64,000 nt of DNA from Thermoanaerobaculia bacterium (GTDB lineage Bacteria > Acidobacteriota > Thermoanaerobaculia > Multivoradales > Multivoraceae): the NCBI GenBank assembly GCA_022822365.1, contig JAJEBV010000050.1:411-64410 (forward strand), written 5' to 3'. The position numbers and the translations under genes are program-made. Positions 15,011-50,333 of this stretch are shown piece by piece. How positions within the stretch are numbered: the stretch's first letter is position 1; each line of letters begins with the position of its first letter. The notes beneath the pieces were generated by a model. That model searched no databases. It was given only the letters and a program-made list of their open reading frames with translations, and was not told where the DNA came from.

Positions 15011-15026
15011 GCGAGGAGAACACGCC

Positions 15027-16671: not shown

Positions 16672-16812
16672 CACTGGGTGCGCCGGCGTCCCCGCCGGCT
16701 GCTGAGGAAACGGGTCGGCCGGAGGCCGGCTCCGCCTCCGTTTCCGCTGGGTGCGCGGGTCTTCTGACCCGCCGCCGCCGAAGGCGGCTTTGAATCGCCG
16801 GCCGAAGGCCGC
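16672..16812. repeat. REP/MITE-like repeat (B-type head 'CACTGGGTGCGCCGGCGTCCCCGCCGGC' + R-arm + internal segment)
   Basis: 'CCGCTGGGTGCGCGGGTCTTCTGACCCGCCGCCGCCGAAGGCGGCTTTGAATCGCCGGCCGAAGGCCGCC' is the reverse complement of the F-arm/internal consensus. It lies between the symporter stop and vapB. Confidence 0.8.
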
Positions 16813-17161: not shown

Positions 17162-17610
17162 TCGTTCCGGACGCGAACCTCCTTCTGTACTCGGTCGATT
17201 CAGCCAGCCCGTTCCACGCGCCCGCGGCGAAGTGGTGGAACGGCTGCCTGAGCGGCTCGATTCCGGTCGGACTCTGCCAGCCGGTTCTCTTCGCCTTCCT
17301 CCGGATCAGCACGAACCGGCGCGCCTTCAGGGAACCGCTCCCGCTCGAGACTGCGGGCGATCTCGTGGCCGAATGGACCGCCCATCCCGTCACGCGCCTC
17401 CTGTTGCCGGGTGAAGACCACGTGCGACACGTCGTGGAACTGCTCGCCGCAGCGGGATCCGCGGGCGGCGATCTCGTCACCGACGCGCAGATTGCCGCGC
17501 TGGCCCGCGCCCATCGAGGCGAAGTGCATACCGCGGATCACGACTTCCGGCGCTTTCCGGAAGTCGTCTGCCACTATCCGCTCGCCCCCACCGGAAAGCC
17601 CGCCGCCTGA
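17158..17610 (+). CDS. vapC: type II toxin, PIN-domain ribonuclease VapC
   Basis: 150 aa with 'MIVPDANLLLY' (first acidic residue of the PIN tetrad), 'TDAQIAALA' and 'HTADHDFRRF' motifs. Confidence 0.75.
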   Translation: MIVPDANLLLYSVDSASPFHAPAAKWWNGCLSGSIPVGLCQPVLFAFLRISTNRRAFREPLPLETAGDLVAEWTAHPVTRLLLPGEDHVRHVVELLAAAGSAGGDLVTDAQIAALARAHRGEVHTADHDFRRFPEVVCHYPLAPTGKPAA

Positions 17611-17639: not shown

Positions 17640-18551
17640 TCAGGAGAGCGGGGCACCTAGCTGTTGGGACTGCTCCCACTCGGCGCGCATCGCTTCTTCG
17701 TCGAAGCGGAAGTAGGACCGCGGGGGCAGTTGGCCCCAGGTGTTCGAGGCGAAGGCGTCGTCGGGGAAGTGGCGGACCTGGTGGTTCGGGCCGAGGACTT
17801 CCATGTCGGCGAAGAACTCGATGAAGGTGTCCTCCTCGGGCATCCGCCAGTAGGCGAACAGGTTCTGGGCCATGCCGTGGCGGCCCGGACCCCAGACGAT
17901 CGGCCGCCGGTGGGCCGCGAGGTGGTCGAGGCCGACCCGCATCTCGCCCCAGTCGGCCAGCTCGAAGGCGACGTGGTGGATGTGGGAGTACCCCTTGTCG
18001 AGGAAGGCCAGCACGTGGTGGTCGCGGTCGGCGTGGAGCCAGCAGGCGTCGTCGCCGATCCAGTCGGTGATCTTGAGGCCGAGCGCCTCGACGTACCACT
18101 TGACGGCGCGCGGGGTGTCGGCGGTGAGGTAGTTCACGTGCTGGAGACGGCGCGGATGGAAGCCCGGCAGGGTGTCCGACTGCTTGCAGACGTCTGGCCG
18201 CGGGTCGTCGGGCGCTGTGTGCTCGACGACGACCACGCCGTTGCCGTCCGGGTCGGCGGTGCGCAGCCCGAACCGGCGGGACGGGAGTTCGATCGGTACG
18301 GCGAGCGTCCCGGCGTCGGACAGCCGGTCGCCGGCCTCGGCCAGCGTCACGCCGGGTTCGAGTTCGTAGGCGATGTAATCGACGCAACCGCGGTCGCCCT
18401 CGGAGAGGCGGACGCAGAAGTCCTCGTAGGCGCAGCGGAGCAGCGCGCCGTCATCCGTGGCCGGGCTGAGGCCCAACAGGCGCTGCCAGCGTGCGGAAGC
18501 CTCGGCGAGGTCGGTGACGGTGAGGCCTGCGTGGTGGATGCCGCCGATCAC
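17640..18551 (-). CDS. VOC-family extradiol ring-cleavage dioxygenase (catechol 2,3-dioxygenase-like, two glyoxalase domains)
   Basis: Only the C-terminal about 300 aa of the 610-aa track ORF is protein-like. GTG start at 18551 is preceded by 'AGGAGA'. 'IGGIHHAGLTV', 'HVNYL', 'HHVAFE' are typical metal-binding His/Glu elements of type I extradiol dioxygenases. Confidence 0.65.
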   Translation of the reverse strand: MIGGIHHAGLTVTDLAEASARWQRLLGLSPATDDGALLRCAYEDFCVRLSEGDRGCVDYIAYELEPGVTLAEAGDRLSDAGTLAVPIELPSRRFGLRTADPDGNGVVVVEHTAPDDPRPDVCKQSDTLPGFHPRRLQHVNYLTADTPRAVKWYVEALGLKITDWIGDDACWLHADRDHHVLAFLDKGYSHIHHVAFELADWGEMRVGLDHLAAHRRPIVWGPGRHGMAQNLFAYWRMPEEDTFIEFFADMEVLGPNHQVRHFPDDAFASNTWGQLPPRSYFRFDEEAMRAEWEQSQQLGAPLS

Positions 18552-20080
18552 GGGCTGTCTCCTGTCGCGGTGGCCGCGAACGCGGAGGTCCGTTCGCAGA
18601 CCGTCTTCACGTCGCAGTAGAAGTCGAACGAGTGGCGGCCGCCCTCGCGGCCGATGCCCGAGTGCTTCGTGCCGCCGAACGGCGTCTCCAGGTCGCGAAC
18701 GTAGAAGCAGTTGACCCAGATCGTGCCGGCGCTGATCCGCCGCGAGAGACGGTCGGCGCGGGCCTCGTCGCCGGTGAAGATCATCGCGGCGAGCCCGTAG
18801 TCCGTCGACTCGGCGAGCGCGATCGCTTCCTCGTCGCCCTCGAACGTCTGCAGGGTGAGCACCGGCCCGAACACCTCCTCGCGGAGGATGTCGGCACCGG
18901 GCGGCACGTCGGCGAACAGGGTCGGCGGATAGTAGAGCCCGCCGCTGCTCTTCCCGCCGAAACGGAGCGCCGCCCCCTGGGCGAGCGCCTTCTCGACGTG
19001 GCTTTCGACGCGCGCCAGCGCGCGAGGATGGATCAGCGGGCCGTAGGTCGTCGCGGCTTCCCGCGGGTCGCCGACGCGGATCGCCTCGACTTCCGCCAGG
19101 AACCGCTCCATGAAGGCCTCGAGGCAGCTCCGCTCGATCAGCAGCCTGGTTCCGGCCAGGCAGACCTGGCCCGAGTTGTCGTACTGGTAAGCAGCGGTTC
19201 GGGCAGCCGCCTCGAGGTCGGCGTCGGCGAAGACGAGGAACGGCGACTTGCCGCCGAGTTCGAAGGAGACGGGAGTGAGCTCCGCCGCCGCGGCGGCCCC
19301 CACCGAGCGGGCGGTCGCCGGCGAGCCGGTGAAGGCGATCCGGTCGACGCCGGGGTGGCCGGTCAGGAGAGCCCCCGTCTCCGGCCCGCCGTGGACGATG
19401 TTCAGCACTCCCGGCGGCAGCCCGGCCTCCTCGGCCAGGTCGCCGAGCAGCGAGCAGGTCAGCGGCGCCCACTCCGGCGGCTTGAGGACGACCGTGTCGC
19501 CGGCGGCGAGCGCCGGGCCGACCCGCCAGGTCGCCAGCATGAAGGGCGCGTTCCAGGGCGTCGACACGGCGACGACCCCGGCCGGATCGTGACGGACCGT
19601 GTTCCGCTCGCCGCCGTGCAGCGTGCGGGCCGGCTCGGCCAGGCGCGACACCGCGTACTCGGCGAAGAAACGGAAGTTCATCCCGCCGCGCGGGATCACC
19701 CGCTCCCGCATCGCCTCCAGCAGGGAACCGTTGTCGACGGTCTCGACCTGGGCGATCTCGGCGGCCCTCCGCTCGACCTCGGCAGCAAGGCGCAGCAGGT
19801 ACGGCGCCCGGCCCTCAGGACCCAGCGCCGCCCAGTCCGGGAACGCGTCGCTCGCCGCCGCGACGGCGGCGTCGACCTCCGACGCCCCCGCCTCGGGAAG
19901 CTCGGCCAGCTTCCAGTCCCAGTCGATCGGCGAACGGACCTCGAAAGCGGCGCCGGCACCGACCCGCCGGCCGCCGATCAGGTGGCCCGTCGGTACGGCG
20001 ACGCCTTCGACATCGACGCGCGCCGCCGGAACGCCAGATGCCGGCCGGAAGGCCGGCGCACCCAGTGGTTCGGCCGTCAC
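18548..20080 (-). CDS. NAD(P)-dependent aldehyde dehydrogenase (hydroxymuconic-semialdehyde dehydrogenase-like)
   Basis: 'HLIGG', 'FTGSPATARSV', 'ELGGKSP' and the catalytic 'GQVCLAG' motifs. Start taken as GTG overlapping the upstream stop in 'GTGA' (20080-20077). The upstream part of the track ORF is junk. Confidence 0.8.
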   Translation of the reverse strand: MTAEPLGAPAFRPASGVPAARVDVEGVAVPTGHLIGGRRVGAGAAFEVRSPIDWDWKLAELPEAGASEVDAAVAAASDAFPDWAALGPEGRAPYLLRLAAEVERRAAEIAQVETVDNGSLLEAMRERVIPRGGMNFRFFAEYAVSRLAEPARTLHGGERNTVRHDPAGVVAVSTPWNAPFMLATWRVGPALAAGDTVVLKPPEWAPLTCSLLGDLAEEAGLPPGVLNIVHGGPETGALLTGHPGVDRIAFTGSPATARSVGAAAAAELTPVSFELGGKSPFLVFADADLEAAARTAAYQYDNSGQVCLAGTRLLIERSCLEAFMERFLAEVEAIRVGDPREAATTYGPLIHPRALARVESHVEKALAQGAALRFGGKSSGGLYYPPTLFADVPPGADILREEVFGPVLTLQTFEGDEEAIALAESTDYGLAAMIFTGDEARADRLSRRISAGTIWVNCFYVRDLETPFGGTKHSGIGREGGRHSFDFYCDVKTVCERTSAFAATATGDSP

Positions 20081-20868
20081 GAACCCGCCGCCTCCGCCGC
20101 CGCCATCACCTCGGCCTCGTCCTCGGGCACGCAGAGCGCGACATGCAGCGTGTTGCCGGTCACCTCGGGCTGCTCGCCGACCGGCTGCAGGTCCCGGTCC
20201 AGCTCGACGATCGGGTTGCGCAGCGTGCCGATCTCGTCGCAATGCACCTCGACCACGTCGCCCGGCTCGACCGGTCGCGAGTTCGCCGGCGTGCCGGTCA
20301 TGATGACGTCGCCGGGTTCGAGCGTGATCAGCCGGCTCAGGTCGGCTACCTGGTAGGCGAACGAGAACAGGAGGTCTTCGCCGGTGTTCCCCTGCTGCAC
20401 CACCTCGCCGTTGACCAGCGTGCGCAGCGTCAGGTCGTTCGGGTCGACGTCGCCGGCATCGACCAGGGCCGGCCCCATCGGCCCGAAGCCGTCCTGGCCC
20501 TTGACCCGCAGCATCGAGCCGCGGTCGGCGTGCCGGAAGTCGTGGATGCCGAAATCGTTGACCAGCGTGTAGCCGCGAACGTAGTCGAGCGCCTCCTCGA
20601 TCGCCACGCCGGTCGCCCGCCGGCCGATGACGACCGCGATCTCCCCCTCGTAGTTCAGGAAGCGGCAGCCGCGCGGCCGCGCCACGGGCGCCTCGTGAGC
20701 GCTCAGCGAGGAAGTCGGCTTCATGAAGTAGGACGGCACCTCCGGGATGCGCTCCATCTCGTACTCCACGCAGCGCGAGCGGTAGCTCAGGTGGACGCCG
20801 ATGATCTTCGAGGGCGGATCGATCGGAGGCAGCCAGGCGCCGTCGCCGGCGCGGCGCTCGTGTTTCAT
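20077..20868 (-). CDS. fumarylacetoacetate hydrolase (FAH) family protein (HpaG/NagK-like hydrolase or decarboxylase-isomerase)
   Basis: 'KIIGVHLSYRS...YFMKPTSSL...GEIAVVIGR...DYVRGYTLVNDFGI...GTPANSRPVEPGDVVEV' is the classic FAH-fold signature. Start at ATG 20868 overlaps the ADC gene stop in 'ATGA'. Confidence 0.75.
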   Translation of the reverse strand: MKHERRAGDGAWLPPIDPPSKIIGVHLSYRSRCVEYEMERIPEVPSYFMKPTSSLSAHEAPVARPRGCRFLNYEGEIAVVIGRRATGVAIEEALDYVRGYTLVNDFGIHDFRHADRGSMLRVKGQDGFGPMGPALVDAGDVDPNDLTLRTLVNGEVVQQGNTGEDLLFSFAYQVADLSRLITLEPGDVIMTGTPANSRPVEPGDVVEVHCDEIGTLRNPIVELDRDLQPVGEQPEVTGNTLHVALCVPEDEAEVMAAAEAAGS

Positions 20869-21668
20869 CGCAGTTGCTCCCGGTCGTGCGGGCCGACGAC
20901 CTCCACGCCGTCGACGCTGTAAGCGAAGGAGAACCGGAAGCCGCGGTGCACCTCGCGCGGCGCGATCGCCTGCAGGTCCTCCAGCGTGTCGCCGCCGAAG
21001 GCGAGCCTGGCCGGCCCCTCCCAGACCTCGGTCGAGTCCCGGTCGTAGCCGCCGGCCCGGACCATCTCGAACACCGTGGGTTCGAGCCCGGCCGCGGCGG
21101 GGAAGTGGCGCGTGTTGAACATCGGCGGAGCGTTCACCGTCGGTCCGGTTTCGCTGATCCCCTCGAGTTCGACGACGGCGCGGACGATCTGGCGGTCGTT
21201 CGCGGTGCAGGTCGCCCCGAAGCGGGTGCCGGGAGCGAGCCTGCACGCCGCCTTGCCGACCTCGAAGCTGCGGGTCATGTGGATCGAGCCGAGCTTCTTC
21301 GGGAAGCCCTGCACCCAGCCGCGGAACATCGCGAAGTCCTTGTCGACCCAGATGTAGACGCAGCGCGACACCGGCTCGCCGCGCCACGTCGCGCCGACGA
21401 CGACAAAGCACTCCTTGTACTGGGACTGGATCGGGTCCTCCAGCTCGTGCAGGTCGTCGGAGCAGGACTGCCAGTCGGCGAAGATGACGCAGGCCATGTC
21501 CGGCCGCTCGGCCGGTTCGAGCTCCGCCGGCAGCAGGGCCGTGATGGCGTCCGGATCGGTGCTGTACTCGACGATCAGGAAGTCGCAGGAGTAGTGCCAG
21601 GGCGGCGCCGGCACGAGGCCGCCGCGTCCGCTGGCGGAGAGCGGGCCGCTGTAGCCCTTGAGTGGCAT
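20865..21668 (-). CDS. acetoacetate decarboxylase (ADC) superfamily protein
   Basis: 267-aa ORF: 'PPWHYSCDFLIVEYSTDPDAI...' with a Lys-containing ADC-like core. Assigned by fold-family resemblance only. Confidence 0.55.
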   Translation of the reverse strand: MPLKGYSGPLSASGRGGLVPAPPWHYSCDFLIVEYSTDPDAITALLPAELEPAERPDMACVIFADWQSCSDDLHELEDPIQSQYKECFVVVGATWRGEPVSRCVYIWVDKDFAMFRGWVQGFPKKLGSIHMTRSFEVGKAACRLAPGTRFGATCTANDRQIVRAVVELEGISETGPTVNAPPMFNTRHFPAAAGLEPTVFEMVRAGGYDRDSTEVWEGPARLAFGGDTLEDLQAIAPREVHRGFRFSFAYSVDGVEVVGPHDREQLR

Positions 21669-21681
21669 GTGCGTCGAACCC

Positions 21682-22467
21682 TCAGGCCGTTGATGGATGG
21701 GATGAGCAGAAGTCGACGAGGGCGCGGAAGAGCCGGCCGCCGTCCTCCGGCGCGGTGACCTCCGGGTGCCACTGCACGCCGAGACAGAACGGGAGCCGGG
21801 GATCCTCGAGCGCCTCGATCACGCCGTCCGGCGCGGTGGCGGCCACCCGCAGGCCCTCACCCAGCCGGCCGGCGCCCTGGTGATGGTGCGATGCGATCTC
21901 GACGTCACCCTCCTGCGCGAGCGGCCCGCCCGCCTCCATCGCCGCCGCCAGGTGCGTCCCCGGCTCGATCGTCACCGTGTGTCGCGTGAACTCGCCCAGC
22001 ACGTCGCGGTGCGGCTTCATGTCGAGCCGGTCGCCGAGGTGCTGTTCCAGGTCGCCGCCGTACAGGAGGTTCAGGAGCTGGAAGCCCCGGCAGATCCCCA
22101 GGATCGGCATCCGGCGCTCGAGCGCGGCGCGGCCGATCGCCAGCTCGACGCGGTCGCGCATCTCGTCGTGCTCGTCGTTCTCCGGGTGCGGCTCCGCGCC
22201 GTAGATCTTCGCATCGAAGTCCTTGCCGCCCATGAAGACGATGCCGTCGAGACCCGCGAGCGCCGCCTCGGGGTCCTCGTCGTACGGCTCGACGCTCGGG
22301 ATGATGACCGGCGCGCCGCCGGCGGCGGCAATCGCCGACACGTAATCGTGCGGGACCATCGAGACGACCTCGTCCCACGGACCGATGATCGCGTCCCGGA
22401 CGTCGCCGACGATGCCGATCCGCGGCCGCCGGCCCCGCCCCGAGTTGTCCGCAGCGCCTCCGCTCAC
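21682..22467 (-). CDS. class I glutamine-amidotransferase-like gamma-glutamyl hydrolase (PuuD / TdnT / IpuF family)
   Basis: 'GIVFMGGKD', catalytic 'GICRGFQ' and 'WHPE' motifs. GTG start overlaps the P450 stop in 'GTGA' (22467-22464). Confidence 0.75.
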   Translation of the reverse strand: MSGGAADNSGRGRRPRIGIVGDVRDAIIGPWDEVVSMVPHDYVSAIAAAGGAPVIIPSVEPYDEDPEAALAGLDGIVFMGGKDFDAKIYGAEPHPENDEHDEMRDRVELAIGRAALERRMPILGICRGFQLLNLLYGGDLEQHLGDRLDMKPHRDVLGEFTRHTVTIEPGTHLAAAMEAGGPLAQEGDVEIASHHHQGAGRLGEGLRVAATAPDGVIEALEDPRLPFCLGVQWHPEVTAPEDGGRLFRALVDFCSSHPSTA

Positions 22468-23714
22468 CGGTAGCGAACCCCCATGTGCTTGATGCCGTTG
22501 AAGAAGTTCGAGCGCAGGCGCTCCGGCTCGGAGACCAGCTCGAGCCGGCCCAGGTGGGGCCGCAGCTCTTCCAGCGCGATCCTGATCTCGAGCCTCGCCA
22601 GGTACGCGCCGAGGCAGAAGTGCGGCCCGATGCCGAAGGTCAGGTGCCGATTCGGCCTGCGGCCGACATCGAAACGGTGGGGATCCTCGAACACGTCCTC
22701 GTCCCGGTTGGCGCTCGTGTACCACATCGCGACCTTGTCGCCGGCGCGGATGACCTCGCCGCGCATCTCGATGTCCTCGGTCGCCGTGCGCCGGAAGTGG
22801 TGAACCGCCGTCACCATCCGCAGGATCTCGTCGGCGGCCGTCGTCGCCAGATCCTCGTCGCCGGCGACGACGCGCTCCGCCTGGTCGGGGTGGCCCAGCA
22901 GCTCGTGCATGCCGCCCGACAGCGAGTGGCGCGTCGTCTCGTTGCCGGCCGCCGCCAGCAGCAGGAAGTAGAGGTCGAACTCGTGCGGCGTCAGCGGCTC
23001 GCCGTCGACCTCGGCGAACACCAGGTCGGTCACGATGTCGTCGCGCGGTTCGGCGCGGCGCGCGGCCGCCAGCTTGCGGCCGTACTCGAACATCTCCAGG
23101 CTGGCCGGGCTGGAAAACGGCAGGTGCTTGTAGCGCTCGCGCTCCGTCTCGTAGTCGTCGACGTACTCCGGGTCGGTCGCGCCGAGGATCCGGTTGCCGA
23201 TGTCGACGATGAGGCGCCGGTCCTCCTGGGGCGCGCCCAGCATCTCGGCGAACACCCGCATCGGCAGCTCGACCGCCACGTCGTCGACGAAGTCGAAGTC
23301 GCCCCGGGCGATCGCCGACTCGAGGATGCCCCGGAACAGTTGCCGGATGTGGTCCGAGAAGGCCTTCAGCGCCCGCGGCAGGAAGCGCTTGTTGATCAGG
23401 GCGCGCAGCTTGTAGTGGCGCGGCGGATCCATGTCGATCATCGACTTGCGCGCCTCGACGTGCTCCGGCTCCAGGTCCTCGAGCGACGTGCCGCCGACCT
23501 CGGACGAGAACCGCTTCGGATCCTTCGAGACGCGGACGACGTCCTCGTGCCGCGTGATCGACCAGAAGCCCGGCCCCTTCGGCTCCGGCTGCCAGTACAC
23601 CGGCGCCTCCGCCCGCAGCCGGGCGAACCACTCGTGCGGCACGCCCCGCGCGAACCGGTCGTGATCGCAGAGGTCGATCCCGGCCACGGCCGGGAGGTTG
23701 GCTGCGTGCGCCAC
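22464..23714 (-). CDS. cytochrome P450 monooxygenase
   Basis: Heme-ligand loop 'FGIGPHFCLGAYLARLE', 'ETTRHS' (ExxR) and I-helix 'AAGNETT' (AGxxT). GTG start at 23714 lies 15 nt after the GS-like stop, preceded by 'AGGAG'. Product about 416 aa. Confidence 0.85.
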   Translation of the reverse strand: MAHAANLPAVAGIDLCDHDRFARGVPHEWFARLRAEAPVYWQPEPKGPGFWSITRHEDVVRVSKDPKRFSSEVGGTSLEDLEPEHVEARKSMIDMDPPRHYKLRALINKRFLPRALKAFSDHIRQLFRGILESAIARGDFDFVDDVAVELPMRVFAEMLGAPQEDRRLIVDIGNRILGATDPEYVDDYETERERYKHLPFSSPASLEMFEYGRKLAAARRAEPRDDIVTDLVFAEVDGEPLTPHEFDLYFLLLAAAGNETTRHSLSGGMHELLGHPDQAERVVAGDEDLATTAADEILRMVTAVHHFRRTATEDIEMRGEVIRAGDKVAMWYTSANRDEDVFEDPHRFDVGRRPNRHLTFGIGPHFCLGAYLARLEIRIALEELRPHLGRLELVSEPERLRSNFFNGIKHMGVRYR

Positions 23715-23728
23715 GGCCTCGCCGACTC

Positions 23729-25045
23729 CTACAGTTGGATCCTGTACTCGTTGCGCTCCCAGTCGGTCACCCAACCGTGGTAACGCTCGAGCTCGAAGCG
23801 CTTGAGGGTCAGAAAGGCGTCGACGATCTCGCGGCCGACGCCGTCGCACAGCAGTTCGTCGGCCTCCAGCGCGTCGAGGGCCTGGTCGAGGGAGCCCGGC
23901 AGCGGCGGAAGATCCTCCCGCCGGTAGGCGTCGCCCGCGGTCGGCTCGGGGGCTTCGAGCTGCCGGCGGACGCCGTCGAGGCCGGCCTGGAGCAGGGCGG
24001 CGATCGCCAGGTGGCAGTTCGCCGTGCCGTCGCCGACGCGGATCTCCAGCCGGGCGGCCATGCCGCGCTCGGGCGGCACGCGGACGAAGGTCGTCCGGTT
24101 GTCGAGCCCCCAGGACACGTTGATCGGCGCCAGCGAGTCGGGGGCGATCCGCTTGAACGCGTTGACCGTCGGATTGAGAAAAGCCATCAGCGCCCCGGCG
24201 TGCTCCAGCACTCCGGCGATGAAGGAGAGCGCGGCGGCGCTCAGGCCGTTCGGTCCCGCCGGATCGCCGATCCGGTTGGCGCCGTCGCCGTCCTGAAGCG
24301 ACACGTGGAGGTGGAGTCCCGAGCCGCCCTGGTCGTTGAAGGGCCGGCCCATGAAGGTGGCCCGCATCTCCTCCAGCACCGCCATCTCCTTGACCGTCGC
24401 CTTGAGGCGGAAGGCCCGATCGGCGGCGTCCAGGGCGGGGCCGTGGCGGAGGTTGATCTCGTACTGCGAGTTCATGAACTCGTGGTTCGCGGCATAGGCG
24501 CCCAGCCCCATCCCGGCGCAGGCGTGGAGCATCCGGCCCGAGATGCCGCCCGGATCGCTCTCGGCGCCGACGGTGTAGACCCGCGACAGCGTGTCGACGT
24601 AGCGGACGGCGCCTTCCGGCGCGCCGTCGTCCGGCTTGAACAGGAAGAACTCGAGCTCAGGGCCCACGATCGGCGCCAGGCCGAGTTCCGCGAGACCGTC
24701 CGCGGCCCGCCGCACCGCGCCGCGCGGGTCGAACGGATGGGGGTTGCCCTCCTCGTCGACCAGGTCGACCAGGCAGGCCGCGATGTCCGGCGCCCAGGGC
24801 AGCACCGCGGCGGTCGAGAGGTCGGGCCGGGCGAAGAAGTCCGGGTAGCCGATCTCGCCGCCCATCACCGGCGTGTGCGCGAGGTCCGTCGTCATGATCG
24901 CCGAGCAGAAGGCGACCCCGTCCTCGATCTCGTGGCCGGCGTCGGCAAGCACCAGGTCCTTGCCGCGGGCGATGCCGTGGAGATCGGGGTACATCACCCG
25001 CAGCGTCCTGGCGCCCTGCTCCGTCAGCCGTTCGATGTCGCTCAT
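23729..25045 (-). CDS. glutamine-synthetase-like gamma-glutamyl-amine ligase (PuuA / IpuC / TdnQ family)
   Basis: 438 aa with GS catalytic-domain motifs ('NHEFMNSQYEIN', 'KPFNDQGGSGLHLHVSL', 'RVPPERG...RLEIRVGDGTANCHLA'). Confidence 0.85.
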   Translation of the reverse strand: MSDIERLTEQGARTLRVMYPDLHGIARGKDLVLADAGHEIEDGVAFCSAIMTTDLAHTPVMGGEIGYPDFFARPDLSTAAVLPWAPDIAACLVDLVDEEGNPHPFDPRGAVRRAADGLAELGLAPIVGPELEFFLFKPDDGAPEGAVRYVDTLSRVYTVGAESDPGGISGRMLHACAGMGLGAYAANHEFMNSQYEINLRHGPALDAADRAFRLKATVKEMAVLEEMRATFMGRPFNDQGGSGLHLHVSLQDGDGANRIGDPAGPNGLSAAALSFIAGVLEHAGALMAFLNPTVNAFKRIAPDSLAPINVSWGLDNRTTFVRVPPERGMAARLEIRVGDGTANCHLAIAALLQAGLDGVRRQLEAPEPTAGDAYRREDLPPLPGSLDQALDALEADELLCDGVGREIVDAFLTLKRFELERYHGWVTDWERNEYRIQL

Positions 25046-25073
25046 GTTCGACCCCTGTTGACGTCGCGGCTCC

Positions 25074-26534
25074 CTACGCCGCGTCCGTTGATTCGTCGAT
25101 GAAATGGCCCAGGCGTTCGTAGGCCTCGGCGTCGCGCCGGCGGATGGCGGCAGCCCAGGCGGTGCCGCACACGAAGAACAACGGCACCGCGGCCCACAAC
25201 GAGCCGACCAGGCCGGTGCTCGCCCCGGTCAGCGCGTCCCAGTTGACGACGACGAACACCATCGCCGCCGCCAGGCCGAGCGCGCCCAGCCCCGGCGCCA
25301 CCTTCGTCTGCCACGCCCGCGCGTCCAGGCCCGTCCGCCGGAAGAACGCGATGACGGAGAGCGAGGTCAGGCACTGCAGGCCGATGATCCCCAGCGCCGC
25401 GATGCCGCTCAGCCAGGCGAACAGGCCGGCGTACGGATCGAGGCCCGCGAGCACGAACACCAGCGTGATGACGAAGGCGACCTCCGCCTGCAGGATGCCG
25501 GCGAGGTACGGCGAGCCGTAGCGCGGGTGAGTGCGGGCGATCGCGCGCGGCAGCAGTCCCTCGCGGGCCATCGCGAAGAAGTAGCGCGCGGCCGCGTTGT
25601 GGAAGGCGAGCAGGGCCGCGAAGATCGAGGTGAGGATCAGCCACTCCATCACGCTCGCCGACAGCGGATGGACGTAGCTCGCGCTCGCGTCCAGGAACAG
25701 CCCGTCCGGGTTCCCGGTCGCCGCGGCGACGACCTCGTCCTCGCCGTAGGCCTGGACGATCGACCAGGAGGTCAGAGCGTAGAAGACGGTGATGATCGCC
25801 ACCGCGACGTAGGTCGCCCGTGGCACGGTGCGCTTCGGATCCCGGGTCTCCTCCCCGTAGATCGCGGTCGCCTCGAAGCCGACGAAGGTGGCGAAAGCGA
25901 AGACGAAGGTCACCCCCGGCGCTCCCGAGAAGATCTCGGCGGGGTTGAAGGAGTTGAGCTGGAGGCCGCTCGCACCGCCGGTGAACACGACGGCGACGTC
26001 GAGCACGACGAGAACCAGCACTTCAAGGATCAGCAGCACGCCCAGGACCCTGGCCGAGAGCTCGATCCCGAAGTAGCCGAGCACCGCGGTGATCGCCATC
26101 AGCGCGAAGGACCACCAGTACCAGGAGATGTCGACGCCCAGCTTCGGGTTCAGGATGTTCACGGAGAAGAAGCCGAACAGCCCCCACAGAGCGCACTGGA
26201 TCGTGTTGTAGGAGAGGACGGCGACCAGCGCGCCGCCAAGGCCCGCCGGCCGCCCCAGACCGCGCGCGATGTAGGCGTAGAACGCGCCGGCGTTCGTCAC
26301 GAACCGGCTCATCGTCGCGTAGCCGACCGCGAACAGGGTCAGCACGAGACCGGTCAGCACCCAGGCGCCGGGCGCGCCGATGCCGTTGCCGATCGACAGC
26401 GGCGGCGGCACCGCGCCCATCATCGAGGTCAGCGGCGCCGCCGAGCCGACGACCAGGAACACGATGCCCCAGAGGCCGAGCGCGCCGGAGCGCAGAGTCC
26501 CCTGACCTGGCGATTCGGGCGTACCGGCGCTCAT
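25074..26534 (-). CDS. APC-family amino acid/amine permease
   Basis: 12-TM protein with 'FAFATFVGFEA' and 'GSPYLAG' motifs typical of APC transporters. ATG 26534 overlaps the upstream stop in 'ATGA'. Confidence 0.8.
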   Translation of the reverse strand: MSAGTPESPGQGTLRSGALGLWGIVFLVVGSAAPLTSMMGAVPPPLSIGNGIGAPGAWVLTGLVLTLFAVGYATMSRFVTNAGAFYAYIARGLGRPAGLGGALVAVLSYNTIQCALWGLFGFFSVNILNPKLGVDISWYWWSFALMAITAVLGYFGIELSARVLGVLLILEVLVLVVLDVAVVFTGGASGLQLNSFNPAEIFSGAPGVTFVFAFATFVGFEATAIYGEETRDPKRTVPRATYVAVAIITVFYALTSWSIVQAYGEDEVVAAATGNPDGLFLDASASYVHPLSASVMEWLILTSIFAALLAFHNAAARYFFAMAREGLLPRAIARTHPRYGSPYLAGILQAEVAFVITLVFVLAGLDPYAGLFAWLSGIAALGIIGLQCLTSLSVIAFFRRTGLDARAWQTKVAPGLGALGLAAAMVFVVVNWDALTGASTGLVGSLWAAVPLFFVCGTAWAAAIRRRDAEAYERLGHFIDESTDAA

Positions 26535-29293
26535 TGGGCGGGTCCGATCCCCAGTTCCCGCAGGCGCGCCTCGTCTTCCGCATACTCGCGCTGGATCGCC
26601 TCCAGCTCGGCGTCGATCGCCTGCTTCGACCACCACCTGTCGCGGAACATCAGGCCGCGAATCCTACGCGCGTTGGCGATGTCGTCGAGCGGGTTCGCGT
26701 CGAGGAGCAGCACGTCGCCGCGCGCGCCCACGGCAAGCACGCCGAACTCGCCTTCCCGGTTCATGTAGCGGGCGGCCTCCGAGGTCGCGGCCTCGAGCGT
26801 CTGGTACGGCGTGAGACCCGCCTCGACGAACAGGCCCATCTCCCGGTGGACGGTGTAGCCGGCGGCCGACACGTCGGTGCCGATGAGAAGGGGCGCCCCC
26901 GCGTCGTGGAGCGCCTTGACCAGGCCGAGCCGCGCGGAGCGCGTCCCGGTGATCCCAGCCCGCTCGCGCGGTCCGTAGAGGTTGTAGAGCCACGCGATGC
27001 CGCCGGGCGTCGTCGGGTGCTCGTACTTGCCGATCTCGCCCGCGTCGCGTTCCGGCCGGTCGAACTCGGTCACCGTGCTGTCCCACAGCGCGAGGGTCGG
27101 CACGTTCCAGACCTCGTACCTCGCGGTCAGCGCCGCCAGCTCGGCCACCTTGTCCGGCGAGCACCACGCCCAGCCCTGGTAGATGTCCCGCGGAACCGGT
27201 TTCATCCTCACGTGCGGCGCCGCGCAGGCGACGTCGTAGCCGGTCAGGTGCTCGATAGAGCGCAATCCCCGCTCCAGCGCGTGTTCCAGCGGCACCCGGA
27301 TCGGCACGTGGGCAGCGACCGTCAGGCCCACTTCCGCGGCGGCGGTCATCACCGCGTCGAACACCTCCGGGCTGAGCGCGGTGTAGACCTTGGCCAGGTC
27401 GTACCCCTCCGCCGCGCTCCGGCGAATGAACTCCGCTGCTTCCCCGGGCTCCGTGAACGTCCGCGGCACCGGGAAGAGCGGCGGGTCGCCGTCCATCAGC
27501 GGCGACGAGACGAAGATCCGCGGCCCGAACAGCTCGTCGCGTTCGATCGCGTCGCGCATCTCCAGGATCAGGCGGCCGCCGGACGGATCTCTCGTCGTGG
27601 CGACGCCGAACATGACGTACTGCCTCAGGTTCTGGTCGCGCATCCGGATCCGCGAGGCATCCGTGCCGTCCCAGGCGAAGCCGCCGAAGTGGTTGTGCAT
27701 GTCGGCGAGCGCCGGTATGACGAACCTGCCGGCGCCGTCGATGACCTGGGCGCCGGCGGGCGTGCAGCCGGGACTGCTGGGGCAGATGTCGGCGATCCGC
27801 TCGTCGCGGATGACCAGGGTGTGGTCCTCGAGGACGGAAGGCGTACGCGAGGTCATCGGGATGAGGGTCGCGTGCTCGATGGCGGTCGCGGCGGTCGCGG
27901 CAGTCGTCGGGGCGGCGGTGAGCCGCACGAGCGCGCCGGGGTTGTTGAGCAGCAGGTAGAGCGCGCCGTCCGGGCCGGTCTTGATGTCGCGGATGCGGCC
28001 GTGGCCCTTGAACAGGAGTTCCTGGCGGGTGACGCGGCCGCCGTCGATCTCCAGGCGGCGGAGTTCCTCGAAGGAGAGCGACCCGACCAGCAGGTCGCCC
28101 CGCCAGCGCTCGAAGCCGGGGCTCGACACGAACTCGATCGGGCCGACGGCGAGCCCCGGTGTCCACTCGACGACGGGCGGCACGATGCCGTCGGCGTGCG
28201 TCCGGTCGCTGATCACCGAGCCGTCGTAGTTGACGCCGAACGTGACGACCGGCCAACCGTAGTTCCCGCCCGGAGCGAGGAGGTTCAGCTCGTCGCCGCC
28301 ACGCGGGCCGTGCTCGGCGGCCCAGATCGCGCCGGTCTCCGGGTGCTGGGCCATGCCCTGGACGTTCCGGTTGCCGAGGGTGAACACCGCGCCGAGCGCT
28401 CCGTCCTCGCCGGCGAAGGGGTTGTCCTCCGGGATGCCGCCGTCCGGGCGGATGCGGAAGACCTTGCCCGAGGGCATGGCGGCGTCCTGCGAGTTCATCG
28501 CCGCGCTCATGTCGCCGATCGAGAAGTACAGGAGGCCTTCGCGGTCGAAGAGCAGGCGGCCGCCCCAGTGCTTGCTGTCGGGCAGGTGGTACTCCGGACC
28601 GAGCCGGAACAGGTACTCCGTGTCCAGCCAGCGGTTGCCGTCGACGCGGCCGCGGATGATCCGCGTCAGCCCCGGGGCGTAGCGGTCGTTCGGGTCTTCC
28701 GAGTGGCTGATCGCCGCGTAGACCCATCCGTTCTCCGCGTACTCCGGGTCGAGCGCGATGTCCATCAGCCCGCCGGTCGAGGTTGCAAGGTCGACCGGCG
28801 GCAGTCCGGTGATCCGATCCGGGTCGACCCTGCCATCCCGGTACCGCAGCAGGTAGCCCGCGTCCTCCGAGATCAGCCCCTCCGCCGGCCCGGTGAACTC
28901 GATGCCCCAGGGGTTCTCCAGTTCGTCGGTGGCCAGGTACTCGACCCGCAGGGTGTAGTGCTCCGTCTCCACCGTGGACGGCAGCGGCCTGGCGATCCAG
29001 GTCGGCTCCGTCTGCCGGCTGTAGATCAGCTCGACCAGGGCCGACATTTCCTCGTCCGAGAGCTCGCCGAGGTAGCCCGGCATGTCCGTGCCCGGGATGC
29101 CATGCCGGATGTTGCTCTCGACCGAGAAACCGTCCCGGCCGAAGCGCCAGTCCGACTTGATCAGCGGCTCCGCGAGTCCGCCCTCGAGCGCCTGCCCGTG
29201 GCAGCCGCCGCAGTGGAGGCGGTAGAGGGCACGCGCGTCCGGTTCGGCCGCCGCGACGGGGGCGGCAAGGAACAGAAGCAGGACGCTTCCCAC
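26531..29293 (-). CDS. tri-domain fusion: c-type cytochrome + SGDH-like (soluble PQQ glucose/sorbosone dehydrogenase) beta-propeller + metal-dependent amidohydrolase
   Basis: One continuous frame holds 'CGGCHG' (CxxCH heme site), then SGDH-like blades ('NPWGIEF', 'GGLMDIALDPEY', 'GNYGWP'), an Ala/Thr linker 'TAAPTTAATAATA', and an amidohydrolase 'ALADMHNHFGG...' domain. Start set at GTG 29293 (signal 'GSVLLLFLAAPVAAA'). It may instead start within the upstream repeat. Confidence 0.55.
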   Translation of the reverse strand: MGSVLLLFLAAPVAAAEPDARALYRLHCGGCHGQALEGGLAEPLIKSDWRFGRDGFSVESNIRHGIPGTDMPGYLGELSDEEMSALVELIYSRQTEPTWIARPLPSTVETEHYTLRVEYLATDELENPWGIEFTGPAEGLISEDAGYLLRYRDGRVDPDRITGLPPVDLATSTGGLMDIALDPEYAENGWVYAAISHSEDPNDRYAPGLTRIIRGRVDGNRWLDTEYLFRLGPEYHLPDSKHWGGRLLFDREGLLYFSIGDMSAAMNSQDAAMPSGKVFRIRPDGGIPEDNPFAGEDGALGAVFTLGNRNVQGMAQHPETGAIWAAEHGPRGGDELNLLAPGGNYGWPVVTFGVNYDGSVISDRTHADGIVPPVVEWTPGLAVGPIEFVSSPGFERWRGDLLVGSLSFEELRRLEIDGGRVTRQELLFKGHGRIRDIKTGPDGALYLLLNNPGALVRLTAAPTTAATAATAIEHATLIPMTSRTPSVLEDHTLVIRDERIADICPSSPGCTPAGAQVIDGAGRFVIPALADMHNHFGGFAWDGTDASRIRMRDQNLRQYVMFGVATTRDPSGGRLILEMRDAIERDELFGPRIFVSSPLMDGDPPLFPVPRTFTEPGEAAEFIRRSAAEGYDLAKVYTALSPEVFDAVMTAAAEVGLTVAAHVPIRVPLEHALERGLRSIEHLTGYDVACAAPHVRMKPVPRDIYQGWAWCSPDKVAELAALTARYEVWNVPTLALWDSTVTEFDRPERDAGEIGKYEHPTTPGGIAWLYNLYGPRERAGITGTRSARLGLVKALHDAGAPLLIGTDVSAAGYTVHREMGLFVEAGLTPYQTLEAATSEAARYMNREGEFGVLAVGARGDVLLLDANPLDDIANARRIRGLMFRDRWWSKQAIDAELEAIQREYAEDEARLRELGIGPAQ

Positions 29294-29441
29294 TGGGTGC
29301 GCGGGTCTTCTGACCCGCTTCCGCCGGAGGCGGACCAAGCGCCGGCCGAAGGCCGACAGTCTCCCCGGCCTGCGCCGCACCGCGGCGCCTGGACCGGGGG
29401 GCGGGTCATAAGACCCGCGCACCCAGCGTCTGCCGCCGGCG
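29289..29441. repeat. REP/MITE-like full element (R-arm ... spacer ... degenerate F-arm)
   Basis: 'CCCACTGGGTGCGCGGGTCTTCTGACCCGC...GGCGGGTCATAAGACCCGCGCACCCAGCG'. It fills the gap between the amidohydrolase stop (29448) and the cyt-c fusion gene. Confidence 0.8.
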
Positions 29442-29447: not shown

Positions 29448-31250
29448 CTAGTTGCCACCGGCGGTGTACACCCTCTCACCCGCGATGAACGTCATCTCCA
29501 CCTTCGTCCGGTGGACCGCCGTCGGCTCGACGTCGAACGGGTTCTGCGACGTGACGACGAGATCCGCCTCCTTGCCGACCTCGATCGTGCCGACCTTGTC
29601 GCCCTGGCCCATCAGGCGGGCGCCGTTCCAGGTCAGGATGCGCAGCGCGTCCTCCAGCGTCACCTGCTCCTGGAGGCCGAGGGTGTCCTCGCTGCCGCCG
29701 GGAACCTGGCGGGTCACCATCGTCTCGACGGCGAGCCACGGGTCGACCAGGGGCACGACCGGCCAGTCCGAGCCGGCCGCGACCAGGGCGCCGGTTTCGA
29801 GGGCGTCCCGGATCGGCACCCAGCGCTTCATCCGCTCGTCGCCGACCGCCTTGCGAATGTCGATCGCGGCCATCGGCGTGGGGAACCAGATGTAGGGCGA
29901 GAACTCCCACGCCATGCCGAGCTCGCGCGGCCTGGGAATGTCGGCCGGGTCGGCGAAGGTGCTGTGGGCGACGTCGTGCATCGGACCGCCGAAGCCGTTC
30001 CGTTCCCGGGCCGCCGCGACTGCGTCGATCGCGGCCCGCACCGCGCCGTCGCCGGCGGCGTGCATCTTCACATGCAGTCCCTGGCGGTCGAAGGCCGTCA
30101 CGGCATTGTTCAGCGCTTCCTGCGGAACCAGGAGCAGCCCGAGCTTCGGCCGCGGATCGTCCTCGCCGGTCGTGTCCTCGTAGGGCGCGAGCATCGACGC
30201 CGTGTGGCTCTCCGTCGGCACCCCGTCCAGCATGATCTTCACGCAGTCGACCTTCAGGCGTTCGCTCTCGTAGGTCGCCCGGATCGCTAGCTGGGACTCG
30301 GCGGCGTAGGCCTGGGCCGGGTCGTGCCCCCAGGCGACGCAGGCCCGCACCCGCTGCTTCAACGTGCCCTCGCGCGCCAGTCGGGCCAGCGCGCCGAGCT
30401 GCCAGGAGTTCGCGTAGGCCACCGTGAACGAGGTGATGCCGTGGGCCAGCATCTCGTCGGTCGCGATCTTCATGCCCTCCATCTTCCGCGCGTCCGAGGC
30501 GGGAGGGATCACGGACGCCACCATGGCGTTGGCCGTCTCGCGCAGCAGGCCGTTCGGCTTGCCGTCCGGGCCGCGCTCGATGATCCCGCCCTCCGGATCC
30601 GCCGTGTCGCGGTCGATGCCGGCGACTTCCAGGGCCTTCGTGTTGACCCAGACGCTGTGGTGGGACTCGTCGTAGAGGAACACCGGGTTGTCCGGCGCCA
30701 CCGCGTCGAGGAACTGCCTCGTCTGCTGGCCGGGCTCGAACACCGCCGCCACCCAGTTGCCGCCGTTGATCCACTCCCCCGGCTCGGCCCGGGAGGCGCA
30801 GTCGCCGACCGACTCCGCGATGATGTCCGGCGTCGCCCCCGGAGGCAGGCGGCAGGAGAACTCCTGCATGCCGGCGATCAGCGGATGGACGTGGACGTCG
30901 TGGAAGCCGGGGAAGACGGTCCGGCCCGCCAGGTCGATCACGTCGGTCGAGTCCGTGCGGAACGCGGCGACGGAGGCGCTGTCGCCGACCGCGACGATGA
31001 CGCCGTCGCGGACCGCGATCGACTCCGCCCAGCCGGCCGGCGTGTAGACCTGGCCGCCGTCGAGGATCGTGTCGGCCGGGTCGTTGCGCGACGGCGCCGG
31101 TTCGCCTGCCTGGAACTGGGCGAGGGCGGGTTGGGAGGCGATCGCAGCGAGGGTCAGGCTGAGGATGTGCGCGGCAAGACGGAGTCGGCCTGACGGCCGA
31201 CGCGCGTTTCCGGCCGCCTTCGGCGGCAGCGGGTCGGAAGACCCGCGCAC
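29448..31250 (-). CDS. amidohydrolase-3 family (YtcJ-like) exported metal-dependent hydrolase
   Basis: 'PGFHDVHVHP', 'VKMHAAGDGAV', 'GSDWPV' amidohydrolase signatures. The hydrophobic core 'LAAHILSLTLAAIASQPALAQ' has no downstream in-frame ATG or GTG. The only plausible start is GTG 31250-31248 inside the repeat arm, giving the leader '[24 protein letters not shown]'. Confidence 0.65.
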   Translation of the reverse strand: MRGSSDPLPPKAAGNARRPSGRLRLAAHILSLTLAAIASQPALAQFQAGEPAPSRNDPADTILDGGQVYTPAGWAESIAVRDGVIVAVGDSASVAAFRTDSTDVIDLAGRTVFPGFHDVHVHPLIAGMQEFSCRLPPGATPDIIAESVGDCASRAEPGEWINGGNWVAAVFEPGQQTRQFLDAVAPDNPVFLYDESHHSVWVNTKALEVAGIDRDTADPEGGIIERGPDGKPNGLLRETANAMVASVIPPASDARKMEGMKIATDEMLAHGITSFTVAYANSWQLGALARLAREGTLKQRVRACVAWGHDPAQAYAAESQLAIRATYESERLKVDCVKIMLDGVPTESHTASMLAPYEDTTGEDDPRPKLGLLLVPQEALNNAVTAFDRQGLHVKMHAAGDGAVRAAIDAVAAARERNGFGGPMHDVAHSTFADPADIPRPRELGMAWEFSPYIWFPTPMAAIDIRKAVGDERMKRWVPIRDALETGALVAAGSDWPVVPLVDPWLAVETMVTRQVPGGSEDTLGLQEQVTLEDALRILTWNGARLMGQGDKVGTIEVGKEADLVVTSQNPFDVEPTAVHRTKVEMTFIAGERVYTAGGN

Positions 31251-50324: not shown

Positions 50325-50333
50325 GGGAGGAAG

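Follow-up and report, generated by a model that had tools for sequence, protein, structure and literature searches.

A gene cluster joining a putative gamma-glutamyl ligase and a cytochrome P450 to homoprotocatechuate-type ring-cleavage enzymes: a candidate route for arylethylamine catabolism

In the literature that we searched, gamma-glutamylation routes are described for polyamines, ethanolamine, isopropylamine, aniline and 1-naphthylamine. In the Puu pathway of E. coli, gamma-glutamyl protection accompanies oxidation of the amine to an aminoaldehyde. The Ipu-type systems for alkylamines and cyclic amines combine a ligase, a cytochrome P450, a PuuD-family hydrolase and an APC permease; their hydroxylated product is an amino alcohol, and no ring is cleaved. 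In the aniline, chloroaniline and 1-naphthylamine systems (TdnQ, AtdA1, DcaQ or NpaA1, with a TdnT-type glutamine amidotransferase, or GATase), gamma-glutamylation likewise precedes oxygenation and extradiol cleavage lies downstream, but the oxygenase is a deaminating Rieske dioxygenase and the nitrogen is lost before the ring is opened. The homoprotocatechuate (HPC) pathway, finally, carries a -CH2COO- side chain to succinic semialdehyde by ring opening, oxidation, decarboxylation, hydration and aldol cleavage. Here we describe a cluster of nine genes (g1 to g9, in order of transcription) at positions 17640-29293 of a 64,000-nucleotide stretch of a Thermoanaerobaculia genome (GenBank assembly GCA_022822365.1, contig JAJEBV010000050.1), the whole of which we call the window, and which shares parts with each of these systems. 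With moderate confidence, we read eight of the nine genes, g2-g9, as serving the breakdown of an aryl-alkyl amine (tyramine or a closely related amine being the most probable), whose nitrogen would be kept as a gamma-glutamyl amide throughout. In other words, the cluster would fuse gamma-glutamyl-mediated amine catabolism to a meta-cleavage pathway of the HPC type.

At about 70% G+C, the window yields open reading frame (ORF) lists swamped by shadow frames, and gene structure was instead drawn from a frame plot of third-codon-position GC and a scan of start codons. Coding on the minus strand runs uninterrupted from about 17.6 kb to past 38 kb, and within it g1-g9 stand as nine co-directional genes: g1 (26531-29293, 920 aa; Pfam Cytochrome_CBB3, GSDH and Amidohydro_1); an APC-family permease, g2 (25074-26534, 486 aa; AA_permease, PF00324); a glutamine synthetase (GS)-like putative gamma-glutamyl ligase, g3 (23729-25045, 438 aa; Gln-synt_C, PF00120, 321 bits); a cytochrome P450, g4 (22464-23714, 416 aa; Pfam p450); a Peptidase_C26/GATase protein, g5 (21682-22467, 261 aa; PF07722, 197 bits); an acetoacetate-decarboxylase (ADC)-family protein, g6 (20865-21668, 267 aa; PF06314, 180 bits); an FAH-family protein, g7 (20077-20868, 263 aa; FAA_hydrolase, PF01557); an aldehyde dehydrogenase (ALDH), g8 (18548-20080, 510 aa; Pfam Aldedh); and a two-domain glyoxalase/VOC protein, g9 (17640-18551, 303 aa; PF00903 and PF13669). 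Four-nucleotide ATGA or GTGA overlaps join g1/g2 (the stop of g1 lying on the start of g2 as ATGA), g4/g5, g6/g7, g7/g8 and g8/g9, and the gaps between the others are 28 nt (g2/g3), 14 nt (g3/g4) and 13 nt (g5/g6). Frame plot, start scan and Pfam together bear out the original prediction, made from the letters alone, of nine co-directional minus-strand genes with these domains, 4-nt overlaps and gaps of at most 30 nt, and the protein lengths are matched by an independent gene call on the public scaffold (KELL22-1 scaffold_715, ENA ERZ23491076). The overlaps, the short gaps and an order kept in four related genomes suggest, indirectly, that g1-g9 may be co-transcribed; a promoter scan found none, and terminator-like matches were not above shuffled controls.

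The ligase g3 belongs to the glutamine synthetase superfamily and keeps the Gln-synt_C catalytic domain with its ligands intact: E130, E132, E189, E196, H245, E334, R317, R322 and R336, which correspond to ligands of metal, ATP and glutamate, do not vary among 70 homologues. It nonetheless stays below the NCBIfam equivalog cut-offs for PuuA (NF045547, 252 bits against 650), GlnA (TIGR00653, 279 against 429) and the type III enzymes GlnT/GmaS (TIGR03105, 298 against 470). Our reference systems were the E. coli puu genes, a chloroaniline-type cluster of ligase, GATase and Rieske genes from Variovorax, and an Ipu-like cluster of ligase, short-chain dehydrogenase/reductase (SDR), hydrolase, P450, ferredoxin and ferredoxin reductase on the atrazine plasmid of Paenarthrobacter sp. 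AT5 (L093), together with GlnT and GlnA. Among these, g3 is 28.9% identical to E. coli PuuA, 30.3% to GlnA, 33.3% to the Variovorax aniline-type ligase, 34.0% to the IpuC-like enzyme and 35.7% to GlnT; orthologues in the same kind of cluster in Streptomyces reach 48-50%. In a neighbour-joining tree, the cluster-linked ligases form a clade of their own, separate from PuuA, GlnA, GlnT, the IpuC-like and the aniline-type enzymes. Tree and NCBIfam scores agree in keeping g3 out of the PuuA and GlnA clades, and its gene context is not one of polyamines.

The presumed partner of the ligase, g5, has a Cys126-His234-Glu236 triad that is conserved among homologues. Its best NCBIfam match is PuuD (NF008471), at 105 bits against a cut-off of 266 and so below equivalog level, and it is 33.5% identical to E. 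coli PuuD and 35% to the Ipu-like hydrolase; it shows no significant match to the aniline-type GATase. The permease g2 shares 38% identity with its APC counterpart in the Ipu-like alkylamine cluster and 23% with PuuP; it is the probable importer of the amine substrate. The kinship to Ipu-type systems is plain in the trio of ligase, P450 and PuuD-family hydrolase, which are consecutive here (g3, g4, g5), and in the APC permease. Identities are modest, however (34% for the ligase, 32% for the P450, 35% for the hydrolase), g3 sits in another clade, and the ferredoxin and ferredoxin reductase genes linked to the Ipu-like cluster have no counterpart in the window, where the module is tied instead to an extradiol dioxygenase and three further meta-cleavage enzymes.

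These four downstream enzymes have their best characterised matches among activities of the HPC pathway or known substitutes for them (HpaD, HpaE, HpcE/HpaG and Sbi00515/MppR), with scores below cut-offs. For g9, the HMMER alignment sets H138, H193 and E245 against the metal-binding H155, H214 and E267 of homoprotocatechuate 2,3-dioxygenase (HPCD), and places H179, Y234, H225 and N140 on HPCD H200, Y257, H248 and N157; all of these residues are invariant in 52 homologues. The extradiol metal triad is thus complete, together with the acid-base His and Tyr, and by its sequence g9 is a type I (VOC-fold) extradiol dioxygenase of the HPCD-like, VOC-type HpaD kind, while its score against the HpaD/HPCD equivalog (TIGR02295, 104 bits, cut-off 321) falls short. 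At the position of HPCD Arg243, the g9 family has an invariant Trp. Arg243 helps to hold the substrate carboxylate, and a Trp in its place would fit a side chain without one. The NAD(P)-dependent ALDH g8 is best matched by HpaE, the 5-carboxymethyl-2-hydroxymuconate semialdehyde dehydrogenase (470 bits, cut-off 638), and is 40% identical to PuuC. The third enzyme, g7, had been labelled an FAH hydrolase in the original prediction; it is closest to the HpcE/HpaG decarboxylase-isomerase (232 bits to E. coli HpcE, 1gtt; 211 bits to the C-terminal HpaG model, cut-off 276), and the label is better changed to match.

The fourth enzyme departs from the HPC pathway, which has HpaF, HpaH and HpaI. The cluster lacks all three and has an ADC-superfamily enzyme, g6, in their place; the only protein of the HpcH/HpaI fold in the window lies 40 kb away (60779-61681) in a coenzyme A (CoA)-ester cluster. 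The closest relatives of g6 are Sbi00515 (189 bits) and MppR (184 bits), with which it has the Schiff-base Lys and adjacent residues of the active site in common: K124 pairs with Lys122 of Sbi00515 in a GFPKKLG motif, and K124, Y84, E86, R116 and Q120 are invariant in 56 homologues. The MppR equivalog (TIGR04460) is not reached, at 212 bits against 380, and the context differs as well, MppR belonging to enduracididine biosynthesis and g6 to a set of catabolic meta-cleavage genes. There is precedent for an aldolase role beside a ring-cleaving enzyme. Phenol-induced MppR-like proteins encoded beside a catechol 2,3-dioxygenase in Saccharolobus have been proposed as the meta-pathway aldolase (PMC7820114), and for MppR itself aldol and dehydration chemistry on pyruvate has been reported (cited in PMC7820114). 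On this footing, g6 probably supplies the hydratase-aldolase step and releases pyruvate.

A dioxygenase of this kind needs a catechol, and the P450 g4 is the sole monooxygenase in the cluster. It falls in the CYP125/124/142 clan (453 bits by phmmer to a reconstructed CYP125 ancestor, 292 bits to CYP125A1) and has the normal acid-alcohol pair in an AGNETTRH motif. Homology is silent on ring hydroxylation; we assign g4 the role of ring hydroxylase because it is the only oxygenase able to supply a catechol to the conserved dioxygenase. Sterol catabolism, which the similarity to CYP125 might bring to mind, was rejected on gene context. The family is very large: 592 of 600 candidate stretches from species-representative genomes were confirmed as members, and among the 120 best matches listed, those from outside the lineage are 57-76% identical to g4, several of them with an N-terminal Rieske domain. 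No ferredoxin, ferredoxin reductase or Rieske protein was found in the 64-kb window by tblastn with cluster-linked partners or by Pfam scans, and the absence of a redox partner claimed in the original prediction stands. At related loci, Rieske domains occur as small ferredoxin-type partners or as N-terminal P450 fusions, and natural Rieske [2Fe-2S]-P450 fusions within the g4 family (P0037, P0093, P0104 and P0111, and positions 10001-11635 of locus L008) indicate that a Rieske-type ferredoxin is a native redox partner.

A strong observation in favor of a single system is how often its parts recur together. A scan of species-representative genomes with an alignment of the P450 gave 80 loci, against all of which every cluster protein was run by tblastn, as were accessory proteins encoded in the metagenomic loci found earliest. 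A census was then made of the 47 loci that are at least 15 kb long, come from other species and carry the ligase, the P450 and FAH or ADC. The FAH protein is present in all 47, an extradiol dioxygenase in 45 (VOC-type in 41, LigB-type in 4), the ADC-like protein in 42 and an ALDH in 41. Less constant are a ferredoxin/reductase or Rieske partner (30/47), a candidate hydrolase of the gamma-glutamyl type (28/47), a group-II pyridoxal phosphate (PLP) decarboxylase (26/47), a permease (25/47), a GntR regulator (23/47), a second P450 (15/47) and an F420-dependent luciferase-like monooxygenase-family (LLM) oxidoreductase (12/47). The hydrolase candidates are C26 proteins in 8 loci, another class-I GATase in 17 and HDAC-like proteins in 6, some loci having two types; the second of these, the c11-type GATase, was found by tblastn in 27 loci, 17 of them among the long ones. 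Ligase and P450 genes lie on the same strand wherever both occur (63/63) and are adjacent, in either order, in 60 of these 63 loci, while gene order is otherwise much reshuffled between lineages, FAH often lying upstream and VOC-ADC-ALDH downstream of the GS-P450 pair. An arrangement kept in four related acidobacterial genomes and reshuffled in some 47 other species-level genomes is far beyond chance. The conserved unit consists of the ligase, the P450 (in many loci with a redox partner), the extradiol dioxygenase, the ALDH, the FAH and the ADC-like protein, joined in part of the loci by the hydrolase, the permease and the decarboxylase, and g2-g9 is a compact eight-gene version of it. The combination that the original prediction had singled out, a catabolic-looking cluster of a GS-like ligase, a P450, a class-I GATase-type hydrolase and meta-cleavage-type enzymes, is supported; its unit of nine genes shrinks to eight, since g1 proves to be a periplasmic protein of restricted distribution, as described below.

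Two side observations concern the census loci. A protein of the HDAC/acetylpolyamine-amidohydrolase family (PF00850) lies inside the cluster in six of them (L027, L029, L034, L043, L072 and L073), four of which lack a C26 or GATase protein, and may represent a further, third kind of enzyme for hydrolysing the conjugate. Seven loci (L007, L015, L019, L022, L028, L030 and L033) hold what we regard as a sister system. In it, a Rieske partner and a P450 of the g4 family are accompanied by a different GS-like ligase (33-35% identity to g3), SDRs, a zinc-dependent alcohol dehydrogenase, an APC permease and a conserved protein of about 490 aa with no Pfam domain; ring-cleavage genes are absent. In L007 it adjoins diol-dehydratase genes. 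It is probably another uncharacterised gamma-glutamyl/P450 amine pathway.

Such loci might be taken to mean that g2-g9 is itself two unrelated neighboring modules, an aliphatic-amine module of the Ipu/Pip type (ligase, P450 and hydrolase), in which the P450 would hydroxylate an alkyl chain like its CYP125/124 relatives, and a meta-cleavage module for an aromatic acid. Four of the sister loci (L007, L015, L019 and L022) do pair a Rieske-P450 and a ligase of this similarity with SDRs and without ring cleavage, the closest characterised relatives of the P450 are aliphatic omega-hydroxylases, and the permease resembles that of the alkylamine cluster. We find this distinctly unlikely. The two halves stay together in 45 of the 47 long loci, across several phyla and despite heavy reshuffling; no other oxygenase is present in the cluster to supply the catechol; and the dioxygenase is not lost but displaced non-orthologously, a LigB-type enzyme, whose only NCBIfam match is the HPC 2,3-dioxygenase model, taking the place of a missing VOC protein. 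A replacement of this sort speaks for ring opening as a step that the pathway cannot do without.

Four loci whose P450 is 95-98% identical to g4 come from close relatives, acidobacterial metagenome-assembled genomes (MAGs) named 'Ca. Multivorans' or Holophagales, of a genus that NCBI places under Thermoanaerobaculia. Nearly all other loci are from Actinomycetota (Solirubrobacterales, Gaiellales, Conexibacter, Rubrobacter and Acidimicrobiia, with some Streptomyces, Actinomadura and Actinocrinis), and the 47 long loci are mostly from Thermoleophilia. The cluster proteins of the window are 56-75% identical to those of the actinobacterial-type loci, and the other acidobacterial loci of the set (L080 and L086) hold only distant variants that lack the ligase, which together suggests that the cluster was acquired from Actinomycetota by inter-phylum transfer.

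Loci on Streptomyces plasmids and other variants of the cluster provide clues to the substrate. A plasmid of S. canus NBC_00633 carries, in turn, a GS-P450 pair, a run of ferredoxin, ferredoxin reductase, ADC, ALDH, a LigB-type 'HPC 2,3-dioxygenase' and FAH genes, a TetR regulator, a second P450 with its ferredoxin, an F420-dependent LLM protein and an APC permease. On pSLUN1 of S. lunaelactis (L089), the ligase, permease, a MarR regulator, ADC, FAH, a LigB-type dioxygenase and an HpaE-like ALDH (59% identical to g8) are present, with no P450 in the stretch examined. The PLP enzyme of pSLUN1 has tyrosine decarboxylases as its best NCBIfam matches, and a second ALDH there scores best as PuuC (50.5% identical to E. 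coli PuuC), its gene overlapping that of a PuuD-like hydrolase; the loci of Actinomadura and Actinocrinis hold orthologues of this PuuC-like enzyme. A phenylalanine 4-monooxygenase that scores above its equivalog cut-off is encoded in one metagenomic locus. Five variants (L080, L081, L084, L086 and L088) have no ligase and a different type of decarboxylase, and keep the P450, LigB, FAH, ADC and two ALDHs. They may use a route through the acid, 4-hydroxyphenylacetate, with a P450 of the same clade as 3-hydroxylase, and they would fit a g4-type P450 clade that makes catechols from para-substituted phenols. An attempt to read the substrate from the commonest, L004-type decarboxylase failed, its scores against cysteine-sulfinate, tryptophan, lysine/diaminobutyrate and 3,4-dihydroxyphenylalanine (DOPA) decarboxylases being nearly equal. 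Taken together, the PLP decarboxylases in 26 of 47 loci, the PuuC-like/PuuD-like pair, the absence of a Rieske dioxygenase and the ligase clade suggest that the substrate is an arylalkylamine and that its side chain is left at the end as a gamma-glutamyl aminoaldehyde. On this basis, loci with one P450 would start from tyramine, those with two from phenylethylamine, and the P450-free variant from dopamine or DOPA.

The same observations bear on the substrate class that the original prediction had in mind, an aniline-type amine degraded through a gamma-glutamyl anilide, with the P450 in place of the Rieske dioxygenase. The GS-like ligase, the class-I GATase-fold hydrolase and the extradiol cleavage do recall the Tdn/Atd/Dca sets, and the c11-type GATase of the related loci belongs to the broad 'type 1 glutamine amidotransferase' group. 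Yet g3, at 33% identity, stands outside the aniline-type clade, g5 is unlike the aniline-type GATase, and the Rieske dioxygenase is missing. PLP decarboxylases, moreover, recur among the loci, and from the PuuC-like and PuuD-like enzymes one would expect the pathway to end in a gamma-glutamyl amino-aldehyde or amino acid of aliphatic type. Nor is a monooxygenase known to turn an anilide into a catechol with loss of nitrogen in one step. We consider the anilide the least probable of the alternatives weighed here, and the proposal in which nitrogen is retained through ring cleavage differs from the aniline-type systems on just this point.

The plasmids and the F420-dependent oxidoreductases could also be read in another way, as signs of a biosynthetic cluster in which extradiol cleavage would turn tyrosine or DOPA into a pigment or a small nitrogen heterocycle, glutamate being attached for a time as a handle. 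Extradiol-based biosynthesis is known from the precursors of lincomycin or the pyrrolobenzodiazepines and from chemistry of the betalamic-acid type; MppR-type enzymes are biosynthetic; LLM oxidoreductases occur in 12 of the 47 loci; and one of the plasmid-borne Streptomyces copies lies about 10 kb from a nonribosomal peptide synthetase gene. That neighbor is not conserved, however, the cluster is widespread in Thermoleophilia MAGs, and the conserved block is a complete degradative set with permeases and GntR, MarR, LysR or TetR regulators and without scaffold-building enzymes. A biosynthetic function is, in our view, very improbable.

The general course of an arylethylamine pathway can be proposed in some detail, each chemical step being read from homology and gene context. 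The amine would be imported by the permease g2 and coupled to glutamate by g3 at the expense of ATP, to give, in the case of tyramine, gamma-glutamyl-tyramine. With a ferredoxin or Rieske partner that would be encoded elsewhere in the genome, g4 would hydroxylate the ring beside the phenol to yield gamma-glutamyl-dopamine, the catechol ring of which would be opened by the HPCD-like g9. The ring-fission semialdehyde would be oxidized by the HpaE-like g8, isomerized and decarboxylated by the HpcE/HpaG-like g7, and the resulting 2-oxo-enoate hydrated and cleaved in a retro-aldol reaction by g6, releasing pyruvate and gamma-glutamyl-gamma-aminobutyraldehyde. An ALDH would convert the latter to gamma-glutamyl-gamma-aminobutyrate (gamma-glutamyl-GABA), from which the PuuD-like g5 would release GABA and glutamate. 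The logic is that of the HPC pathway with the carboxymethyl side chain replaced by a gamma-glutamyl-aminoethyl group: applied to a catechol with a -CH2CH2-NH-gammaGlu side chain, the same chemistry leads to pyruvate, CO2 and gamma-glutamyl-gamma-aminobutyraldehyde, the substrate of PuuC, and then gamma-glutamyl-GABA, the substrate of PuuD. The last intermediates would be those of the Puu pathway, but in E. coli the aminoaldehyde comes from amine oxidation, and here it would come from ring degradation, in a window that has no PuuB-type oxidase. The proposed route leaves no conserved gene without a role and also explains the PuuC-like/PuuD-like pair.

Where along this course the glutamate is removed is a separate question. 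In a version closer to the logic of Ipu-type systems, it would come off directly after the P450 step, the gamma-glutamyl group would serve hydroxylation only, and free dopamine would be the substrate of ring cleavage. The hydrolase gene does follow the P450 gene directly, with a 4-nt overlap, Ipu-type clusters likewise pair the two, and 19 of the 47 loci have no linked hydrolase, so hydrolysis need not belong to the last step. At the same time, gene order varies freely between loci, and the coupling of a PuuC-like ALDH gene to a PuuD-like hydrolase gene on pSLUN1 fits late hydrolysis. The chemistry speaks against early release as well: extradiol products of DOPA and dopamine cyclise, and a free arylethylamine fission product, in which an amine is combined with an aldehyde or keto acid, is expected to do the same and not to enter a route of the HpaE/HpaG type. 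We judge early hydrolysis unlikely and prefer retention of the conjugate through ring cleavage, in which case glutamate would be put to a new use, as a protecting group against cyclisation of the ring-fission product.

Several observations weigh against the pathway as we propose it. None of g1-g9 reaches an NCBIfam equivalog cut-off, and as judged by these models no cluster protein is a recognized member of a characterised family at the level of specific function. The nearest solved relatives of g4, namely CYP125, CYP124 and CYP142, are aliphatic omega-hydroxylases of sterols or lipids and do not act on aromatic rings. The cluster has a single ALDH, and the window lacks a redox partner and a decarboxylase; tblastn and Pfam scans found neither an amino-acid decarboxylase nor a dedicated regulator anywhere in its 64 kb. 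The scores of the commonest decarboxylase of the related loci are no higher with aromatic decarboxylases than with those for diaminobutyrate, aspartate or cysteine sulfinate, no hydrolase lies in the sequence covered for the 19 loci mentioned above, most census loci come from MAGs, and the ligase tree, built from distances, carries no support values.

Beyond this one locus, we put forward, tentatively and as somewhat less likely than not, a more general proposition: that there is a widespread and unrecognised route by which biogenic arylethylamines (tyramine, or phenylethylamine where a second P450 is present) are degraded wholly as gamma-glutamyl conjugates, converging on Puu intermediates and using a CYP125-clan P450 turned aromatic hydroxylase. 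Our literature search, which lay outside most subscription journals, found no published gamma-glutamylation route for arylethylamines and no coupling of a P450 to extradiol cleavage, in keeping with the original prediction that the latter combination is uncharacterised; the literature searched likewise held nothing relevant on catabolism of gamma-glutamyl-tyramine or gamma-glutamyl-dopamine, or on the host lineage. If the proposition is correct, this would be a fourth design of gamma-glutamyl amine catabolism, after the polyamine/ethanolamine, alkylamine and aniline-type routes, and the first to carry the conjugate through cleavage of an aromatic ring. It would also give a function to a large uncharacterised subfamily of CYP125-clan P450s, to a new clade of GS-like ligases and to catabolic members of the ADC superfamily, and it would explain the use of tyrosine-derived amines by abundant, poorly cultured soil Thermoleophilia and by some Acidobacteriota. 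Among the carriers are strains in culture (Conexibacter sp. DBS9H8 and CPCC 205762, Streptomyces canus NBC_00633, Actinomadura meridiana JCM 17440 and Streptomyces lunaelactis MM109), and the natural variants, whether P450-free, ligase-free, with two P450s or with LigB for VOC, are built-in controls.

The first gene of the nine is of a different character. The protein g1 has a signal peptide and a CGGCH haem-c site, and joins a haem-c domain, a PQQ-type glucose/sorbosone-dehydrogenase beta-propeller and an amidohydrolase in an unusual architecture. Upstream of it the minus-strand run continues to 38246 with an Amidohydro_3 gene (u1, 29448-31259), an Amidohydro_3 lipoprotein gene (u2, 31468-33165), a TonB-dependent receptor (33272-35635) and an S9 peptidase of the dipeptidyl peptidase IV type (35676-38246), all identified by Pfam and gene call. 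The upstream proteins and g1 all have signal or lipoprotein leaders, whereas g3-g9 are enzymes of cytoplasmic type; these leaders and the CGGCH site of g1 mark them as envelope proteins. Both g1 and the Amidohydro_3 genes are confined to acidobacterial loci (g1 to L009-L012 alone in the census). By its features g1 is periplasmic, lineage-restricted and outside the conserved module, and the upstream envelope genes are probably a separate module for uptake and hydrolysis. As conserved parts of the pathway, g1, the upstream amidohydrolases, the TonB receptor and the S9 peptidase were rejected on their occurrence in only four close acidobacterial genomes and on their export signals.

The borders between these gene groups carry palindromic intergenic repeats resembling REP elements, of which the window has at least 15 copies in both orientations. 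The repeat has a hairpin core, GGGTGCGCGGGTCTTCTGACCCGC, followed by a second GC-rich hairpin (GCCGCCGAAGGCGGC). Copies lie at 2281-2368, 4563-4650, 16741-16809, 29287-29333, 31180-31267, 31352-31398, 47102-47189, 47274-47320, 50348-50435, 50520-50566, 51977-52023, 57608-57654, 57720-57807, 58249-58295 and 58358-58445, at borders of gene clusters and sometimes in pairs. They occupy the gaps u1/g1 (154 nt) and u2/u1 (about 208 nt), and the copy at 29287-29333 (family D2) abuts the start of g1 and marks off the upstream envelope genes from g1-g9. Such copies can lengthen ORFs: a 676-aa ORF for u1 was rejected, as its first 70-125 codons or so are repeat copies and the external gene call gives 603 aa.

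At the other end of the cluster, a gene for a PIN-domain toxin (17158-17610, plus strand), overlapped by an upstream 95-aa partner (16874-17161), converges on g9 with 29 nt between the stops. Four coding frames with high third-position GC have no Pfam match, at 38263-39552 (plus strand, 429 aa), 4675-6486 (minus, 603 aa), 47389-48144 (minus, 251 aa) and 56859-57434 (minus, 191 aa). Adjoining the cluster is a sugar-utilisation locus (8962-16658, plus strand) with a divergent LacI regulator and MFS transporter, a GH3 glycosidase, an SSF sodium:solute symporter and a TonB-dependent outer-membrane barrel of the CarboxypepD_reg type (1148 aa). Farther away, a cluster of the acyl-CoA/C5-dicarboxylate type (48822-61681) encodes an ALDH, a PrpD/MmgE protein, an acyl-CoA dehydrogenase, two MaoC/mesaconyl-CoA-hydratase halves, a family III CoA-transferase and the HpcH/HpaI-fold lyase mentioned above, and a GRDB-like fragment of 165 aa lies just upstream of it (48163-48660).

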